The notes under the pieces are model-generated. The model was not told the origin of the DNA. It ran no database searches and saw nothing but the letters and a program-made list of their open reading frames with translations. A stretch of DNA of 63,931 nucleotides, filler included, from Folioceros fuciformis (lineage: Eukaryota): assembly GCA_049999805.1 (NCBI GenBank). It is 20 parts of 20 records of this genome, joined end to end, with 100 filler letters (N's around TTAATTAATTAA, not from the genome) between each part and the next. Parts side by side here need not be neighbours in the genome. Positions count along the whole stretch, not along the records: positions 56,791 to 58,474 come from JBNGIO010005047.1; 19 more parts are not named here. One strand, given 5' to 3'. Shown here in pieces: positions 14,928-63,931 of this stretch; position 1 is the stretch's first letter, and every line of letters begins with the position of its first letter. The position numbers and the translations under genes were made by a program.

Positions 14928-16782
14928 AAATACGTCTTTGAAGGAGCTCTGCTTTTGGTATTGCGACGGACTCGACGATGAGCTGTTCAGAGAATTGATG
15001 CAGGCCCTCCAAGTCAACACCACTTTACGGAAGATCGACATAAGCCGTACAAGATGGGGTGGTGAGGGAAAGCAGGCCATCATCAACGCGAAGTTGGCAC
15101 GCAATGTTTGTGACAGGGCCTACTGGCCTTTGCTTTTGGAGGGGCAAGTGCCTGTGAAGCCCAGGGTAGGCCGCCTTTTCCTGTGCGGTGCACCTTACGC
15201 AGGGAAGACCACTCTCCGAAACACCATGATCACCGCATGGCGCGCACCGCAACCACACACATCAGATTCTGCACCGCAACCACCCACATCAGATTCCACA
15301 GGAGCCGCATCAGCCATCCAACTCCCATGGTGGGAACAATTGAACTTGCTATTGTCTCTAGCTTTGAGACGTCCCCGGTTGGATCATGTTCCACGCACAG
15401 GAGCGGCATCACCCAGCCAGGTGGATACTGTCCCCAGAACGGAAGGCATAGAAATCGAGGTGCTGCGCAACGACCACGAGATGGAAGTTACCATTTGGGA
15501 TCTGGCTGGACAAGCTCACTACCGAGTTCTGCAAGACTACTTATTCCCCAGCTTCAACCAGACGTGTGTCTTCTTGTACACATTCAACCCGTTTGATGCC
15601 GGCAAGCTTAGTGGACCCCTCCCGTCTACTGAAATGCTGTTAGACAAGTTCACAAACAGCTTCAAGTTCTGGCTTAGATTCATCCACTCTAATTCTCGCA
15701 ACGTGGGTTCTTGTTTGCCTCGGGTATTTGTGGTTGTCACTCATAAGGATCAGATGCAGGCTCTGGAGGTTGAAACACTAGTCGAACTGCTGCAACCAGT
15801 CGTGGACGAGTTGGCCCAGGATTTTGAGGAGGTACTTCATGTTACGACAACCCATCTATTCTTCATGGATGCTCGATCTACGCACACCGTGCACCCCGTG
15901 CTGGAGGAACTATTCCAATCGTTTCGACAGCTATTTGGACTTCCTCTGTTTTGGGTTCCGGAGCCATGCAACCGACTCAGTGCTGTTTTGACACAGTGGG
16001 TATCTCGAAATCCAGCTGAGCCTATTATCACCAAGGAGCGATGCAAAGAGTTGTTTCAACAAGATGATGAGCAACGCCTTCAAGCAATTCTTGCCTATCT
16101 CCACGATGCAGGCAGAGTCATCTGCTTCCAAGATGTAGATGCTGTGGTGGTGAATCCACAATGGATGAGTCATTCGTTTCTGGGCCGCCTCATCCAGCGC
16201 CTAGCCAGACAGCCTTGCGTGGGAAGATTCAATGATGGATTTGTTGCTACAACTTTGCTGCATGGAACCTTGAACGACATCCTGGACCACACGCAAGTGC
16301 AGGGCATTCGTGCTGAATACCTGGTATTATTGATGAAGAGACTAAACTTGTGCTACGAAGATCATGCCAATCGAAGCCCAGGATTCTTCGTTCCCTTCAC
16401 CTTGGATGACGCTGAAGGTAAAGCTCTTCAAGGGAAACGACCGTTGGATTGGAATGGTGGTGCGGCGTCCAAGTACAGTTACGTAGGGAGACGGCTACAA
16501 TGCCGAGATGGTAGAAAAACGTTTCTCGGTCCAGGCTGCTTTCTAAGATTCCAGGTACGTTGCCTTCTGAGCTGTCTCTTTTGTTAGTCATTTAACCTCT
16601 CTTGTGTTTCATGACACGGCCAATGCTTGTGCATTGCAGGTCAAGTTACGACAGGTCTTGTTCGATGGGCTCTTCGGTATGCAGTCTCATCAGTATAGCA
16701 TTGCGCGTAACTTGATCAGATTTAACTACGATGGTATGGACGTGTTTTTGGAGAGCAGTGGGGATATTCGGGACGAGACCGG
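14928..16782 (+). CDS. TORNADO1-like Roco protein (LRR-Roc GTPase-COR), internal fragment
   Basis: RI-like LRR (LMQALQVNTTLRKIDIS), P-loop CGAPYAGKTTL, RTEGIEI, G3 IWDLAGQ, G4 VVTHKD and COR LAYLHDAGRVI...VVVNPQWM. GT-AG intron at 16555-16639; the frame is open at both contig ends. Confidence 0.9.
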
Positions 16783-17449: not shown

Positions 17450-20400
17450 GTGGAGTTATCTGAGATCTCCGTAAAACAAAAGGAGAGGTTTGCCCGAGAT
17501 CGCATCTAACCCAAATAAGGCTGATTGTGACGTGATCTTGAGGTTAGCACCAGGAAAAATCAAGCAAAGCCATCTGCCTACCTCCCTCTAGATCTCTTGG
17601 GCAAAGTTGCAATGATAGAACATGTGTTGGCTCTTGTTCGGGGCCCTAGCGGTGCACAGCCAACACACATCCTCCCCCGTTGCAGCTGAAAGCCCATCCC
17701 AACGATCTGCATTAGGCAGACATGCTTGAAAGAAACACCAAACCGTAAACCTGACCTTGGTGGGGATTCATGCAGATTTCCATAGCAGCTTGATGGCTTC
17801 CCTTTGTCGTCGTCCAGCTAATTGCAATTGGGGAGCCATCGGTTGTCTTTGTTTGATTTTCTACGCTCGCAGCAACCGAAGGAACAAGTCCGCCATTGGG
17901 AAGTTGAAGAAAGATCGAGGGGGAGCCTTCTTACATCCTAGACGCCTAGGCCACCTGTAGAGATCTGGTCTGAAGGTCAGGGCCCAATTCTCTCCTAGTC
18001 GGAACCAACACTAGACCTTTGCTTTATCGGAGGTATGTGGCCCAATTGGACGTTCGCCAGGGAGGCACCATCGCCTTGCTCGAGCAGACTTAACGAGAAC
18101 AATGATAGCCCGCAATTCTCCTCCTTGGGCTTCCCCGTCGTCCCTACCTTGGTGTTCCAAAAATCCATCAGGCGACATGACCTTGAAAGACTTCAATGAC
18201 TAATTGCCCTCCGAACCTGCAAGCTAGACCGCCCTATCTAGCTCTAATGCCTCCACCTGATCATCCTCCTCCTCCGAGTCGACTCCCCTACTATCCATGG
18301 AGAAAGCATACCACCCTTCACCTCCTATGGTCGGTTGTTGCCTTAAGAGCTGTTGCACCTTATCTTCAAGCCCCTTGTGCAACCACACGAAAATGAGTCT
18401 GGCGTGTTGGGCCCCTAAGCAAAATTCCCCTTTAACCTCCTTTATCTCCTTCCAACGAGCCTCTGATCTATTCCATAGATGACCAAGTTGGATAACACCC
18501 CTCAGACAAGCCAACCCGAAAATTTGTGACCGGTATACCCTTGGCCTGAACTCCTGCACCCACAACCTCGAGAACCCCTGCAAAGGAATACCAAGAACAT
18601 CATCCGCATAAGAAAATTCACCCAAAATAAGATATTGTCTAACCTCCAAGTAATTGCTCCAGATGGATTTGAAGAGTGGGGAGCATTCTGCAGTATTGAG
18701 AATCGGTTTGTCAGCCAGAATGTTGTCAATAGACCTCCTACCTCTGGGGACAGCTTGGGTGCACTCTAGATGCTGTGTTAGAAGGCTCTTTCTAGGGATA
18801 GTACGTCGGATCAGCAACCCTGACAACCCACTGAGCATGCAACACTTTCATCTTGGCAACTGGGTCCACTACCCCAAGACCCCCCAAATCACGCGCCTGT
18901 ATAATATGCTGCCAAGCCACTTTAGAGCACCCAGCCTTCTTATCCCCCAAACGCTTCCATAGGAAAGAGGTTAGCACCTATTGTAAGTGTTTCACCTCTA
19001 ACTTGGAAGGGGCCCATAAAAACAGATCATACCATAAAGAGGCAGTAAGAAAATGATTAATCACCACCAGCCTTCCTGCCAAATTGAGCTCCAGCAACTA
19101 AAGACTAGCCGCCTTGCGAATGAACCTAAGGGAAACGTACTTCCCAATCTCCCCACTCTCATCCCCCTCTTGGAACGGAAGCCCCAAATACTTGTCGATA
19201 GAGCCCTACATCACTCGCTTGATGTGATTGATACATTGAGGAGGCCCTCCATTCAAGTGAAGACACATCATGCGCGTCTTACTCCAATTCACCTTGCAGC
19301 CAGATAGTTCACCAAAAACCTGGACCTGTTGGAGCAATGCTTTCAATGATGCCTCCTCCGCCAAAGAAAAAAGAAGAGTATCATCTGCGAATGCAAAGAC
19401 CCTTAGCTGCGTTCCGTCAGGGTTCCGAATACCCACCACTGCCGGGTCTTGCTTGACTGCTCTGAGAAAGAAGTCAGTGACGATGATAAATAAGAACGGA
19501 GCAAGGGGGCAACCTTGACGTACCGACCGAGAGATGCCAAAGCATTCCGTAAAAGACCCATTAACAGCCACTTTGGCTCCTAGGTCTTCAGTCAAAATGG
19601 CTATCCATCTGCAGAAATTATTCCCAAACCCGAAGCTACGCAGGCATCGCCACAGGAAATGCCATTCAACAGAATCATAAGCCTTATAAAAGTCAAGGGA
19701 AATGAAAACGGCGGCTTTCTTCTGTACCTGAGTGTTGTACTTCGCTTCCCTCAACAATAGTAAATTGTCGAGGGTGCACCTATTCTGAATGAACCCTCGC
19801 TGCTCCTTCTCAATCCAATCATCAAGGAAGGGTGTAATTCGGTTAGCCAGTACCTTAGCAGTCACCTTGTACGTGGTAGTGAGCAAGGTAATCGGGCGCC
19901 AATTGGAGATTGATACGCTGGCATCTTGCTTAGGGAGTAGGGAGATAACCCCCATGTTGAACCATCTCCCCATACTACCTTCTTCCCAAAACATACTGAC
20001 CGCTTCCATGAATAACGGCTGCATAAAATTCCACCCCCAAAGCAAGAACTCGGGAGGGATACCATCATGTCCCGGGGATTTGTCCCTCGGCATCCCCTTC
20101 AGGGCCTGGAGCACCTCGTCAGCAGTTATCGGCTTATCCAAAGCCCTGCGCTGATCATCCGACACTTTAGCTGAAAGTGCACCATAAGAAGAAGACCAAA
20201 GCCTTTCCCACCTTGCCACCTTCCCAACGTTGGAAAATATGCCAACAAAGAAGAGGGTAATAAGCATTTTTAAACCTTCGAGCGATTCTTGCACCGCGCC
20301 ACATGCGTTAAGGAGGGCAGGAATCCGCGTTCGATGTCGGTTGGAGGCCACCTTGTTGGAGAAAAATTTAGAGGGGCAGTCCCCCTCCCTCACCCACTTG
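17450..20400 (-). mobile_element. L1-type non-LTR retrotransposon (LINE) ORF2: reverse transcriptase and degenerate 3' part
   Basis: KSPGHDG, NWRPITLL, SLDFYKAYDSV, RQGCPLAP.LF, FADD, GC.VN.SK, KVAW....GGLG. Frameshifts and stops below about 19200; the 3' boundary is approximate. Confidence 0.9.
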
Positions 20401-20500: not shown

Positions 20501-21651
20501 TTACCTTACTCCCTCCCTCAGCGAGGGCACCAGGAACACCACACCGGCCGACACTTCCACTGCGTCCACTGATGCTCATTCTTTAGATCCAGAAGGTGCG
20601 CCTGCAGCGTGTCCGAGAACTGCATGCGCTGCATGCTACTCCGAACCGCTGATGGTTGAAGGCGCCTCTCACCGCTGCATATGCCCCGATTCAGCACCCC
20701 TCCACAGCGCCATCAAAGTCCTTTGCCATCACCTGCCTCGGACCTGGCCGTCTGCCGAGCACCTGTGCTGCCTGGATCCACCTGCAACCGCTCCTGCTAA
20801 CCGATCAACCCAGCCCTTGCCTGGCTCCGACTGCAACAAGCTGCTTGTCCAGCCTCCAGCAGGCTAACTACTGCGGCCACGATTCAGCCAGGCCACTGTT
20901 CAGCCAGCGGGTCTGGCTGCTTGGATCCAACTGCCAGCCCCTTACCTGGCCTGCCACCCACCTCAATCCAACATGTTCGCCAGCTCGCTGCATTCCAGCC
21001 CGCCTGGTCAGCTGGTCAAGGCCCTGCTGCCTGCTGGGATGCGCGGCCTGGATCCTGACCGGACCCTACCTACTGCCAGGCCGGGATGGCTGCTGGCTAG
21101 GTTCTTCAGCAACCCACCACCAGCCAGCAGACCTTTCCCCCCAGTCATCAGCAGCTGCCAGTCTGCCTGCCGCCAGACCGAGCTGCCTGCATGCTGACGA
21201 CCTGGGCCACCTGCTCCTTGAGCCTGCGGTCAGCCAGACCCCGGCCCACCCCAGCCCGGATCGCCCTGCCGACAGCCCGCCTGGCCGGCACTAGGCTGCC
21301 TGTCTGCAGGCGTGACCAACCACAACCAGCCTAGGCGCCCAGCCGGGCCTCCTGCACTCCGGCTGGCCGATTTTCCCAGGCAGGTCGGCAGTCCGATCAG
21401 CCAACCTATCCCCCCTGATTCGACTGGCCGACAGCCTGCTTGGGGTCTTGTAGCCAGGCCGCTGCCCAGCTTCTTGACCTCGCCCCGGCCATCCAGAGCC
21501 CCTAGCCAGCTATCCTGATGGACGCGATCCAGGATAGCCAGCCATGACTGCCTGAACACTGCGTCGCTTGGTTGCTGCTATCAGGCTGCCCCTTGTGCCT
21601 GTGGCCAGCCGGTTCCGCGGCCTAGCAGAGATCCTAGCCGGGATCCAATCC
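20501..21651. repeat. GC-rich degenerate repetitive sequence of unknown origin
   Basis: Recurrent CCAGCC, CTGGC, GGATCC and CTGCC words. The ORFs here are low-complexity and show no recognisable domain. Confidence 0.35.
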
Positions 21652-28856: not shown

Positions 28857-31896
<3,040 letters not shown>

Positions 31897-33725: not shown

Positions 33726-35357
33726 GGGAGGGAGGGAGGGTGGGTGGTCTTCCAAAAAAAAAGTGTGCCTGGAAACTCTCTTAAACCCAGGAGGGGGGGG
33801 CCTGCCGAATCCCACAGAGAGTACTATGTGGGGGATGGTTCCTCGGGAGCCCTCCCACTTCAGAACCGACGAATTCTCACGAGGAGCGCGGCCGAACGGG
33901 AGCTGATCGTCGCCCACGGGCGGCGGCTGTTTCCCACTCCCGGCCAATGCGTTCAGTAGTGCTTTCAAGAATTCTTCTGAGCCGCGGCGGCGGGCCTCCG
34001 GGCGACGCGACCTGCTACCTAGCGAGAGATGAGGGCCAATTCCGGTTTGCAATCTCAGAGTCAGTTTCGTGTGGGTTGCCGATCCCGGCGTGTTCCGTAG
34101 ATCAAGGAGTTTTGGGAGTCCCTCGCCGTGCATTCGGTGGGGGACGCTGTCGGGTGCGTCTTGTGCAGATTCGCGGTGGAGCGAAGCGCGTGACCAGAGC
34201 CAGTGACCAGAGTGCGGGAGGCGACGCCCGCGGTGTTGTCGAGCCGCCCCCCTAGCTTCCCTCGGGGAGAGCGGGGCGGGGAGAAGTGTTCGCCGCGAGC
34301 GTCAAGCTCCGCCGGGTCGGCCCCTCCGAGACCGCTAGCGTGGCCCACTGTGTTGTTCGCAGTAGCGGGTATCATTTCGCGACGCGGGCGCGGTGCGGGC
34401 CGAGGGGTTACATTCGGAACGGAATACGAGGTAATCGGGTGGGGGTCGCGCCGTCGCCGTGAAACGCGGCGGCCGGTCCCCCCCGTGAATCTTCTTGCTC
34501 AATCGTTTTGCCATCCACGCCCCGCCCTTCCGAGGGCGGGGGAGGCAGGGGGCTCCGTGCCGCCGCTGCCGCTCGTGGCTCTGGTTGTGCCTGCTTTTCG
34601 TGTGTGCGTGCGCGTGCGTGCGTGTGTGTGCCTCCTCTCCCCGCGAGGGAGAGCAGGCTGTCCCTGCTGTGACCGTAAGATTCAGGGGTGGATACTCTGC
34701 CCAGGGAACCGGGAGGGAGGCTCCTCCCGAGCACGGAGGGGGACGCGATGCCCTCCTCCTCCGGGTCGTGTCGTGCCCGGATGTCCAGCCAGGCCGGGGG
34801 CCTGCTGGCGAGGAAGCTTCTGGGCCCTCGGGCACCATGAGACTAGCTGCGGGGACGCTGTCGGGACGCGCGGAAGGGTGACGATGTCTCTATCCGAGAG
34901 GGGATGGCTGTTCGAGGCGCGAAAGCGGAAGAAGCGTGGGATGCGTGCCGAAAGCCATCGGGCTCCGCGTCGCACCCGTCAGTTCGCCCCCTTCGTAAGT
35001 GAGTAGGTTGTGGTGTGCCTCTGACCATCCGAGTACTCAGTCGAATTAAGGAACCCGGGGGACCCGACAAATCAACGAAGCTCCGCCCCTGCATAAAATT
35101 GCACGTCGCAGTGCTGGCCTGCGCAAAGAGGCCAGCGGACCCCCCAGGCACCGTCGGCAGCGCTACCCAACACGCCGGGCCCCCATTGGGGACTGGGTGC
35201 AAAAAGGAACTTGGTCGCACGGTATGGGGTCTCGGGCGTGCAGGGGACGATGCGGGGCAACAACATAACGACGCCGCATAAGCGGCGAACCACGACTGGG
35301 GAAAGGGGAAGCTTAGGATGACTGAAACTTGGGCGTCCCCTTGATGACAAGAGGGGG
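33726..35357 (+). other. Probable 45S rDNA intergenic spacer / Pol I promoter / 5' ETS fragment
   Basis: Very GC- and CpG-rich non-coding contig. TATGTGGGGG at 33825-33834 resembles the plant Pol I initiation consensus TATA(T/G)(A/T)GGGGG. No 18S sequence is reached, so the call is unconfirmed. Confidence 0.5.
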
Positions 35358-35457: not shown

Positions 35458-36898
35458 TTTCATTGGGTAAGTCCAAGAGTATCTGCTATAGTCGTCAGTA
35501 ATTGTCAAGTAGTAGAGAGAGCCACCCAGAGAGGCAACATGGATCTTCCCAGAAATGTCAGCATGGACAAGTTCTAAAATATTGGAAGTTCTATGTGCAG
35601 GCGTCGAAGGGAAAGGCAACTCCTTCTGCTTAGATACAATGTAGGCTGTACAACTAGGTAACTCTCGAAAGCACTTGGGAAGAGGTTCCCGATAACAATT
35701 AAGCTTAGACATCCGAACTAACTTGTCCTGGTTGGCATGACCTAGACGTGCATGCCAAAGTTGGGCAAGTGCTTCCTGCGACTTAGCAACAAGGTGAGCG
35801 CGTCGAGCAAGAACACACACCATATCTAGGCAATACAGGTCATGTTCTAAGAGACCTTGAGCAACTAGGGACTTGCTAGAATTTGTGTGAAAAATACGGC
35901 AGCCTATAGAAGTAAAAGTGATATTGTAGGCACTAGTACGTAACAGCTGACTGACGGACAGCAAGTGGTTTGCCATATCAGGGACGTAAAGGACATCATC
36001 AAGCTGGAAGTGCTGACCACAGGAATTTTGAAAATGGCAAGAACCTTTGCCAAGTATCTTCAAACCTGAACGGGTGAGTTCATCACCGAGCAGCACCCTC
36101 TCAGAGGTAAGAAGAGGAACGAAATTGTTGATCAAACTCCTGTCGTGGCATATGTGTGTCAATGCTCCTGAATCCAAGTACCAAGCATTATCTGTCTTGG
36201 AAGAAGTAGACAAACAAGTTGTTAAAACCACCGACTGCTTGGTGGCAGACTCGCTAGAGGAAGATTTGGCCTTGGAGATAGTGTGAGCAGCAGCCCCTTT
36301 TTGAGAAGACTCAGCTCGTTTGGGTTCCCCAGATTTCTTTTTACGACATTCCCTCTCCTAATGGCCAACTGCACCACACCAATGACAGGAGCCGGTGCGT
36401 TTGATCTGGCCCGGTATGGAGTCTTTGGAAGAACCAGCTGCAGGTGAGTATCCAGATCTCGTCTTGCTATAGTTGCCTAGCCTAGATTTAGAACTAAAAA
36501 GTACCTTATCCATCTTAGTGCGGCTAGAGTTGGAATGTGAGCCGGTTCATGTCTACTCTTCTTGAGGGTTTAGGGTTTAGGGTCCAAGGCTCCAACAACA
36601 TCTGTGAAACTGATCTGCGCTGGTTGACCAACAGCCATGGCTTTAGCAGCATTACGCAAGGATGCACCATAGCTGGAGACAAACGGCTGATAGCTCTGAT
36701 ACCATGTGAAGAATGCAAGTTGCTAGGCAAAGCAGCCATTGCATTGTACAAAACAACAATGAATAAAGAATCAATAATTACAAAGAAAAGGTTGTGTCTT
36801 ATATATCACTCTAAGTGACATTTGGATAATTAACCTAAACTATACTAACCATGACGCTGGTTACAAATACATAACCCTAACGGGGGTTATTTCTAACA
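35458..36898 (-). mobile_element. Ty1/copia 5' fragment (LTR about 36898-36705, Met PBS 36704-36693, truncated gag, protease, start of integrase)
   Basis: TGGTATCAGAGC next to an LTR bounded by TG...CA, CHWCGAVGH knuckle, WYLDSGA, LLGDELTRSGL, WHARLGH and VHADISGK. Same family as the 39796 and 59282 copies. Confidence 0.9.
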
Positions 36899-50863: not shown

Positions 50864-51852
50864 GGTAGAAGCTAGGGACATGAGCATCTGAAGTCATCCC
50901 CATGCCGCAGCACAGTATGCCCTTCTGCTAAAGAGGTCCTTACCCTCTTTTCTCCTGTTGACAATCTTGGGATGGCTGCTTCCTAACTTCCAAGGGGGGT
51001 GGCACCCCCCTCTGCCATGCTCCCGCCGGTGGTCGATTCCACCACTTTGGTTCCTTCTTCCATGGCGGTGGCCAACTCCACTATTGTGGTGGATGGTTCC
51101 ACGATGGTGGCTATTTCAACCACCTTGGTAGCTGACTCCCTACCCCTCTTCGGTTTGTTTCAAATTCTCTCTTGACTCTGGCCCTAGCCTCATCCCCTCT
51201 CCTGCTCATACCTATCCTCCACCTTCATGAACTTCTTCAGCACAACAGTGCACGCTACTCCTCCCAACCTCCACAATGGCCACACCTAGATGTCGAATCT
51301 CCACTCGACTTTGAATTACACAAGATCATGATGCCAGATGGTGGTCTTCCTCCAGTTGCGCTCCGCCTCTGTTAGTGGTCCTTTGCTCGCTGTCCGACCA
51401 GACTCCACAAATGGGGTTGCTATTTCCACTTGGGCTATGCTTGTACCTTCCATCTTTAGCCACCGTTGTGGAATGAGCCACCTCCCCACTACTCTACACA
51501 ACTATACAGACAATTTTTATTCTAAAAAACCCCAAGGTCCAAGGACCTTCTAGCCTGCCTTGACATTCACACTTCAAGGTCCAAGGACTAGTTATTTGTA
51601 AAACAAAAAAACAAAAAAATCCAAGAAGTGATACTACAATAGGCCAAGGACAACGTTTGGTTCAAAAGCCCTTCCCTTGGGCAGTTCCTGAATACTCCAT
51701 CATGCAAAACGTAAGAAAAACAAAAAAAATCATTCAAACCATCAGTCTAGGGAAGGGATATTGCACATGTAGTCTTCCACATTAGTCTACCTCTATTTTA
51801 AAATTCACTATTAAATTAGTCTATTTCTATTTTAAAATGGACTATCAACTTA

Positions 51853-56790: not shown

Positions 56791-56856
56791 GTGAGGGATG
56801 GGTACCGTGTGCATCGATTCGCAAATGGTTGTTGCAGTTGTAAGGGACGACCATGA
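56791..56856 (+). CDS. C-terminal end of a PPR-DYW deaminase domain, GRP variant (DYW:KP-like); rest of gene beyond contig edge
   Basis: Frame 1 of the contig reads VRDGYRVHRFANGCCSCKGRP*. This matches the DYW terminal signature VRDxxRFHHFxxGxCSCxDYW, with GRP as the final tripeptide. Confidence 0.85.
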   Translation: MRDGYRVHRFANGCCSCKGRP

Positions 56857-57721
56857 GAAAAATGAAGAAGTGAGTGTAGCCAGTGCCAGGCGGATTCCTA
56901 GTGGTGTGCGGATTCGTCTTGGTGGCAAGTACCATGTTCCTCTACGGGCATTTGAGGGCATTTCGCTCTGTGGGACTAGGTACTTCACAACTTTGTAGCA
57001 AGCCTAGCATGTTTTCCTTGCACCCCTGCACACTCTTCATGATGAGCACGTTGTACACGTGCTTTGCAGGGTCTCCACAACTCTTCTCCTTACCAATACT
57101 GCCGTATGTGTATGATGCTGTACAGTGCAGGTGAAAGCACATTGGTAGCCAGTATGCCGAGGAGTATCAAGGCACAAGAGCTTGGCAGTTCACAGGAAAC
57201 AGGTGAAACGAGCAACCCCAATCACAATCCAGGCAGTGCGAGGCACATATCTAGACTTTTACTTAAGGGCAATTCTTCGTCTAGTCACATCCAGGACCGC
57301 GTTGCCGTTTCGGCCTTCAAGATACCAACTGACCCAACTGCCTGATCAGAAACAGAGACTGTGATACCATGGCTCGGTTAAAATATCTTGGGCTATGTAG
57401 GCTGTTATGCACTTAGCGTTGACAAGCCTTAAATGAAATTCTCGTTTTTCTTATGGCGGCTGACAAGCTATTAACTGTTTTGTATATCTAAACTGAAACA
57501 TAAAGTTACTACCTAATATCCGTTACATGGTCAAGTGGTCTGAAGCACCAGTCCGACAGCTCGGCCACAGGTATTACAGGACGGGTCACCCCTTCAGGCA
57601 GGACTGCTCACGGTTCACCCCTTCAGCTGCTGTGGTCATACATTCGTACAGTGTACCCGGCCGGGGATCTGCCTAGACGAGACTTTTGTTAGAGTCATCT
57701 TCCGACAGCGGTCCCTGAACG

Positions 57722-58474
57722 ATGGCCACAGTATGGCAACCGGACCTGTTGCGGACCCATCAAATTGGAATTGGTGTGTGTGCAAGGACTCTACCAGGAA
57801 CCCCCGCTCACCTCAGCTTCGGGAGTGAACCCTTTGCAAACAAAGCCTCCAGGTGCAGCAGTGTCAGGAGCCCAGCACTTCCACCTCCGAGAACGAGAAG
57901 GTGTGTGGGCAGGGACGGGTTTTCCGACGATGCTGGTAGTTGCCAGGAGCAGCAGGAGCACTTGTGGCGACAACTTTTTCTGGATCCTACCATGTGGTGG
58001 GACAACAGACGAGACAAGAAGAGCTCCCGTTCCCCTCACTTCCGGCGTAAGGGGTCCGGCGAGGTGCTGCGGTTGGACAACAAATTTAAGCCAGCATGGG
58101 TTGATGAGCGGCTCGTCTCCTTGGATATGCAGATGGATCACGCTTCCGCTCCTTCCACCTCCAGCTCTCCAGATAATCCTGAACCTGGAAAGCGTAGAGG
58201 TGGTGAAATGGGCTCCAGGGGCAGCAGTGCAGGAAACCCAGCACTTCCACATGCAATGGGCCATGGAGTCTCTTCTTTCGAGTCCAGCTCTCTGTATAAG
58301 CATGGGTCTGGCAGGCGTGCAGAATTGGAAGCGGGCGTCGTGACTGCTGCAACCGTGAGCATGTTGTGTCATCAGGGGAAGCTTTCTGAGCCCTGGAATC
58401 TCTGGTGCAGTCAGACTCTGGCGCTTGTCAGTCTCTGTTTTACACAGTGTTAAAACTCTGTACAGCTAAGAAGG
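57722..58474 (+). CDS. 5' part of a probable organelle-targeted PPR protein carrying an OSB-type PDF motif; apparent 1-bp frameshift near 58390
   Basis: Ser/Arg-rich transit-like N-terminus and the motif LWRQLFLDPTMWWDNRRDKKSSRSPHFRRKGSGEVLRLD...PAWV. Then SMLCHQGKLSE, and after restoring one G, ALESLVQSDSGACQSLFYTVLKLCTAKK, typical of the start of a PLS-PPR tract. Confidence 0.7.
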
Positions 58475-62869: not shown

Positions 62870-63931
62870 AAGTCCGACCCTCCATCCACAGCAGCAAGGA
62901 ACCCCATCGCTCCTTCATGGGAACGAAACCCAATGTCTCAACGACAGTGGGATAAGTGTGGCCACTAAAGGTGGGACCCGTCGGCAATCAGTGCCCTGGG
63001 TTTTGCCTCCACATTTTTGGCGCCGCTGCCGGGGAGCGGCTTGGGAGTTTCTTTTGCTGACCGGATGGAGAGTCTAAGTTGTCCTGTAGATGTCTGGTGG
63101 AAGAGGTGATCGCAGAACTGGTAGAGGAAGAGCAGTTGTAACGCCTTCACCAAGGGATCTGCGTGCAACAAGGAGGAATTTGCTGAGAGGAGAGAGTAAC
63201 TTGACCCCTAAGGCTAGCACCCTTGTGCAGGAGGAGCTGCCTTGGTCAAGTGGAGAGCACGAATCTGAAGGGTTGATTGCTGGAGAGCGTGACATCCAGG
63301 AGGTTGGTATTACATCTGGTTGCAGGAAGGAGTCTTACAGCCAACAAGTGGGTCATGTTGAGAGGGAGTCCGTGTTACAGTCGAGTGTTGTGCAGTCAAC
63401 TCTAGGTGATACTTCAGTTGTGGTATCATTGCTGGATAGCTTGCAGTCACTTGTTGGTGGTCAGTCAGTCCCCTTGCCGGCCATTGTTCCATTGTCAGCC
63501 CCCGTAGTGGTTTCGATAGGGGCTGTACTTCCTACGTCAAGTATCAGCCAAGTGGGTGGAGGAGTTGCTGCAAGGATGGCTGCTCCTATTCACAGTCGTC
63601 AGCAATACGTGAAGTTTGGAGACAAGAGAAGAGGGGAGGATGCTGAATCCTTCCTAAGGACGTTCGAGCATGTGTCTCGTGCCAACATGGAGGACACTAC
63701 AGCTGATCGTTTGAGGATCTTTCCAGGTTTGCTGAGAGGACAAGCTCAGCAGTGGTACAGCCGGACGTATGGAGTGACACCACCAGTGGATTGGGACAGC
63801 CTGAAGGACGATTTCTTGACCAGGTTCCGAGGTCTCAGCCATGGCCATCACACCTACGCGAGGTTGAGGACTTTGAAGCGAGGAAGGAAGGAGGATCTCT
63901 ATGACTACATTGAGAGGTTCTACAGCTATGT
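62870..63931 (+). mobile_element. Ty3/gypsy LTR retrotransposon 5' end: LTR end, tRNA-Asp-type PBS, gag
   Basis: The LTR ends ...CCTCCACA at 63013, with PBS TGGCGCCGCTGCCGGGGA at 63018-63035. An ORF from ATG 63090 is open to the window end and has the retrotransposon gag pattern DAESFLRTFE...LLRGQAQQWY...WDSLKDDFLTRF...EDLYDYIERF. Confidence 0.9.

Follow-up and report, generated by a model that had tools for sequence, protein, structure and literature searches.

The window, by which we mean the whole 63,931-nucleotide stretch of DNA analysed here, is made up of 20 contigs of 1.1–8.6 kb with N..TTAATTAATTAA..N spacers between them, so features that lie on opposite sides of a spacer are not genomic neighbours. 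The feature of interest opens the 18th of these contigs (56791-58474; 1684 bp, with a G+C content of 51.8%). On direct translation of the + strand, the first 66 nt of this contig (56791-56856) encode VRDGYRVHRFANGCCSCKGRP and then a TGA stop, and we obtain here the same reading of these 66 nt as was given in the original prediction. No stop interrupts the frame up to the contig edge, which means that the gene has been cut by the assembly and that what remains visible is its 3' extremity. The contig as a whole contains two short direct repeats only, gave no Rfam match, and resembles none of the 19 others in the window.

The peptide is the C-terminus of a DYW domain. The 21-residue peptide matched a single Pfam-A family at E-values up to 10, the DYW-type deaminase domain (DYW_deaminase, PF14432), with an E-value of 6.6e-4 and a score of 19.9 bits, and the alignment places peptide residues 1–19 on profile positions 73–91 of 93. 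This register puts Gly-Arg-Pro on the last three profile positions, where Asp-Tyr-Trp normally stands, with the stop codon in register. The score falls below the curated cut-off of 24 bits for this family, since just one fifth of the domain is present. A phmmer search of the PDB (E up to 10) returned three matches, namely 7o4e (OTP86), 9kfx (a synthetic PPR-DYW protein) and 7w86 (DYW1), with E-values of 1–2 that are not significant alone, and all three matches fall at the extreme C-termini of DYW domains. The nine letters common to the tail and these three PDB tails, RDxxRxHxFxxGxCSC, have a chance expectation of 2.2e-7 in the six frames of the window, were observed once, and appeared in 0 of 300 shuffles. 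Translation, Pfam, PDB and chance count thus agree that the coding sequence of a DYW-type deaminase domain ends with the 21 codons at 56791..56853 (+), as had been proposed, with the TGA (56854..56856, +) immediately 3' of the final domain position. No second DYW tail, deaminase core or PPR signal was found elsewhere in the window. A looser pattern, GxC[ST]Cxxxx-stop, has a second match at 51756-51785, which is without DYW context and which we put down to chance.

The residue anatomy of the tail can be read against solved structures. According to excerpts of Takenaka et al. (2021; PMC7611903), the DYW domain ends in nine residues that form a strand and a loop holding a second, structural zinc, and the ligands of this Zn2 in OTP86 are H924, H947, C954 and C956. 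In our alignment to the PDB sequence, H947 corresponds to peptide His8 (56812-56814; RVHRF aligned with RFHHF), and C954 and C956 correspond to peptide Cys15 (56833-56835) and Cys17 (56839-56841), the outer residues of a Cys-Ser-Cys (56833..56841, +) aligned with C954-S955-C956. All three of the visible structural-zinc ligands (3/3) are kept in the tail, and the fourth, H924, falls outside the contig. Relative to the DYW:PG domains of OTP86 (7o4e) and DYW1 (7w86), which belong to proteins that carry out C-to-U deamination, the tail is identical at the nine letters given above and has the same domain-end register, but it reads V-H-R-F where they read F-H-H-F, such that the second His of the H-H pair has become Arg, it has an additional Cys ahead of C-S-C, and it ends in G-R-P (56845..56853, +; profile positions 91–93) where they end in D-Y/S-W. 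A terminal triplet that differs from the conserved D-Y-W, as established here by translation and profile register, is a feature of DYW:KP proteins, and the last three residues, Gly-Arg-Pro, are the defining feature of the GRP subgroup of that class, which takes its name from them (excerpts of PMC9478123).

Sequences related to this contig occur in public runs. Each of the four runs considered (X1–X4) holds at most 34% of the sampled words of the contig, so none of them is the source sample; three coded organisms carry parts of it. Contigs that extend 5' past the contig start were found in X2 (3 records), X3 (6) and X4 (28), and these are related copies at a likeness of at least 90%, not demonstrably this locus. 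Their 5' consensus has a synonymous Val codon at 56791-56793 and, read by eye in the same frame, gives [S/D]-R-[I/L]-E-Q-R-D-I-V-V followed by R-D-G-Y; it comprises at most 30 letters and ends a few residues before the K103 position (by a residue count made by hand). DYW domains carry [basic]-hydrophobic-x-x-R-[E/D]-I-V-V before R-D, and the residues predicted upstream in the related copies fit a DYW-like continuation in frame.

The summed contig depth in the tail bin (56791-56847) relative to that two bins further on is 5846/480 in X1, 3324/353 in X2, 17446/4250 in X3 and 796605/16454 in X4; these sums are not copy numbers, and the peak on the tail fits the expectation for a tail common to many paralogues. 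Depth is raised again from about 57646 to the contig end in all four runs, with the peak bin at 57988-58044 reaching 1.45 million in X4. Under this second peak lies a frame of 244 codons (57719-58450, +), and no long frame occurs between the stop of the tail and its start at 57719. The downstream frame contains W-W-D-N-R at 57995-58009, within a WWDNR...P-x-F stretch that may resemble the PDF motif of plant OSB proteins. It matched no Pfam family and gave no usable Atlas match, and its residues 60–140 found no homologue among proteins of 134–427 aa. The 3' flank also includes a possible GT..AG intron of 146 nt (56980..57125, +), weakly suggested by one X3 contig that skips it, the shorter side of the joint being 26 letters. 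No RNA run is listed as carrying the contig; that X3 is one is a guess on our part, and the cover of the tail and the GT..AG joint in X3 carry no firm bearing on expression. In three X4 contigs the tail (56844-56867) is followed directly by 57683-57719, some 840–870 nt being left out, with sides of 21–38 and one contig per joint, and the tail and the downstream element may recur together.

Searches with the tail itself were limited by its length. A HMMER scan of 1.84 billion protein representatives, with a query of 35 residues (14 X from the N spacer and the 21-residue peptide), returned five matches, none of them a DYW protein (0/5); with 21 informative residues, such a scan is blind to diverged tails. 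The five matches are repeat-like proteins with 3–15 matched stretches each. The entries P0003–P0006 of the protein library are long predicted proteins in which a unit of about 70 residues (REGYRLHPFSSSCF...) is repeated in tandem, and they resemble translated satellite DNA; with a short query peptide rich in Cys and His, proteins of this kind score above true relatives. Degenerate back-translated DNA patterns of the tail gave 0 loci in metagenome, prokaryote-genome and viral contigs, and the strings CSCKGRP and VRDGYR had no match in a literature string search.

The rest of the window provides genomic context. Pfam matches on ten of its larger frames show a land-plant nuclear picture, with a SABATH-type methyltransferase fragment, gag, integrase and RT, DnaJ, TPR, Roc-COR and a PABP with three RRMs. 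The methyltransferase fragment (1108-1743, +; Methyltransf_7, E of 1.3e-39) is of the SAM-dependent carboxyl type, and SABATH methyltransferases are a plant family. An open frame of 552 codons at 14929-16584 (+) has Roc (E of 1.4e-4) and COR-A (E of 4.1e-10) matches and so the build of a ROCO-type GTPase; plants have proteins of this build, of the TORNADO1-like kind. Retrotransposon gag, integrase or RT accounts for many of the frames, and several of these are copia-like (e.g., 19209-20399, 35458-36357 and 63090-63929). Two contigs (20501-21651 and 33726-35357) have a G+C content of 64–65%, compared with 44–53% in the other 18, and may derive from another compartment, from a class of repeats or from a contaminant.

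The PABP fragment (30347-31075, − strand) is informative about the organism. A total of 7995 proteins matched it at an E-value of 1e-20 or better among 8000 scored candidates. Within the best 120 of these 7995, the top match is a JGI protein at 90% identity, the top named matches are liverworts and mosses at 86–88% (Calypogeia, Riccia, Marchantia, Sphagnum, Ceratodon and Physcomitrium), vascular plants stand at about 69–84% (lycophytes 77–83%, ferns 76–77%, seed plants 69–78%), and no hornwort name appears. In a quick tree of 25 of the 120 listed matches and the window sequence (218 columns), the window sequence sits in the bryophyte group (SH-aLRT of 92, with one stray Selaginella inside) and outside the liverworts (83), the Sphagnum pair (99) and the other mosses (91). 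For a bryophyte outside both mosses and liverworts that has a KP-type tail, the simplest identity would be a hornwort, a placement by exclusion from one short conserved protein. The taxonomic hint that had been drawn from the tail agrees with an independent PABP fragment, which points to a bryophyte outside the sampled mosses and liverworts.

DYW:KP domains are distinguished by a Lys-Pro that replaces Pro-Gly at their N-terminus, an HAE active site, a length of 132/133 residues and Lys88, and the GRP subgroup is further marked by Glu in place of the conserved K103. The DRH and GRP subgroups reportedly originate with Gerke et al. in 2020, as related by Ichinose et al. in 2022. In excerpts of the latter paper (PMC9478123), hornwort DYW:KP proteins comprise these two subgroups, named by their last three residues, the KP clades of tracheophytes are separate from those of hornworts, and the third-last Asp is conserved in every PG and KP protein but those of the GRP subgroup. 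The same excerpts describe KP2 and KP3 as designer consensus proteins based on GRP sequences (those of the Anthoceros angustus genome in the case of KP3), with U-to-C editing in E. coli of about 26% for KP2 and about 22% for KP3 and with C-to-U editing not detected; natural GRP-type sequences are there said to be under-represented in transcriptomes, the working proteins being consensus designs. Portions of a second study (PMC11845758) report that the terminal triplet varies among KP proteins and is strongly conserved among PG proteins, and that Lys88 is essential for U-to-C editing in KP2, KP3 and KP6. Portions of a third (PMC11332814) report that KP proteins crosslink to the edited RNA, with a lysine proposed to attack uridine C4, and that KP designs remain crosslinked to RNA in bacteria, apparently stalling as RNA-protein crosslinks. 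[quoted passage not shown]

The tail resembles the hornwort GRP subgroup (the templates of KP2 and KP3) in ending in G-R-P, in being without the third-last Asp and in keeping the H...CxC ligands, a comparison made by description and over the last 21 residues alone; it also occurs in an organism that the PABP fragment places among the bryophytes. With the other DYW:KP subgroups (hornwort DRH, the fern and lycophyte clades, and designer KP1 and KP4–KP7) it shares a non-DYW triplet and an occurrence in U-to-C lineages, but those subgroups keep the third-last Asp (PMC9478123, in excerpt), whereas the tail has Gly at this position.

Taken with the DYW match and with the G-R-P at the D-Y-W position, these excerpts of PMC9478123 support the end of a GRP-type editing-factor gene that was put forward in the original prediction, and we consider it probable that the tail is the 3' end (21 codons and stop) of a nuclear PLS-class PPR gene with a GRP-variant DYW:KP deaminase-like domain. 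Membership in the GRP subgroup described from hornworts, as read from the last 21 residues, also seems likely; the KP dipeptide, HAE, the catalytic HxE(x)nCxxC, Lys88, the 132/133-residue length, the PLS repeats and E1/E2 all fall 5' of the contig start. The original prediction had further tied GRP to DYW:KP and thereby to U-to-C editing, in ferns and lycophytes as well as in hornworts. The excerpts of PMC9478123 uphold this link, but GRP is a hornwort subgroup and not general to the KP proteins of ferns and lycophytes, so the claim stands in the narrower form.

By extension from the work on consensus proteins, the complete protein would act in plastids or mitochondria after import, its PPR tract binding one RNA site and its DYW:KP domain changing a uridine to cytidine. 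The chemistry proposed for this step would involve a catalytic zinc, a glutamate and the conserved Lys88 attacking C4 of the base. U-to-C activity is on record for consensus designs alone and for no natural GRP protein.

A different reading of the same sequence is that the tail belongs to a GRP-type gene copy that has been truncated or has decayed, possibly within a repeated unit, and is not the end of an intact factor. The contig is just 1684 bp long, the contigs around it in the window are small and repeat-rich, with gag, integrase and RT ORFs of copia type, no upstream sequence is visible, the tail and 57646-58474 are both at very high summed depth in X4, and the three joining contigs of X4 hint, weakly, at joint recurrence. 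Against such decay, the frame runs unbroken through all 21 codons, the tail retains its three visible zinc ligands and has its stop exactly where the domain ends, and the related copies run on upstream in frame; large PPR families are likewise expected to yield a high summed depth. We therefore regard a dead fragment as unlikely, if still deserving some weight.

It is also conceivable that the gene codes for an ordinary C-to-U editing factor of the DYW:PG class in which the last residues have drifted. The tail does align with PG-type DYW domains and the KP box is outside the visible sequence, and a few substitutions suffice to switch the direction of the reaction (PMC11845758, in part), so the chemistry does not follow from the tail by itself. 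However, none of the three terminal residues is that of D-Y-W, and together they spell the triplet after which the GRP subgroup is named; Arg stands in for the second His of the H-H pair, and the third-last Asp is kept across PG and KP proteins except for the GRP subgroup, with mutation of D134 or W136 in PG proteins causing editing to be drastically decreased or abolished (excerpts of PMC9478123). Drift in a PG-type factor is, on these grounds, very unlikely. A chance open frame at the contig edge has a negligible probability: the peptide has 21 codons only, was picked by eye and scores under the Pfam gathering cut-off, but its chance expectation and the shuffles effectively refute this reading, and the sole Pfam match and each of the three PDB matches is to a DYW tail, in an end-to-end alignment that leaves the stop in register.

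That the GRP tail and the 57646-58474 stretch about 0.85 kb downstream form one unit, copied many times in the genus, is a conjecture that we hold to be rather improbable. If the two were one unit, candidate U-to-C factors would multiply with the repeat, by way of a mobile or segmental vehicle, and not as isolated genes.

U-to-C editing is the least understood base conversion of plant organelles, and its enzymes are under development as programmable RNA editors. Since the existing designs apparently stall as crosslinks in bacteria and natural GRP-type sequences are under-represented in transcriptomes, natural full-length GRP genes would be useful. A fragment of 21 codons by itself adds almost nothing to this end, being a probable truncated member of a family that is already known from hornworts. 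The value of the tail lies instead in its use as a taxonomic marker, as a flag for a lineage with GRP genes, and as a pointer towards the full gene.
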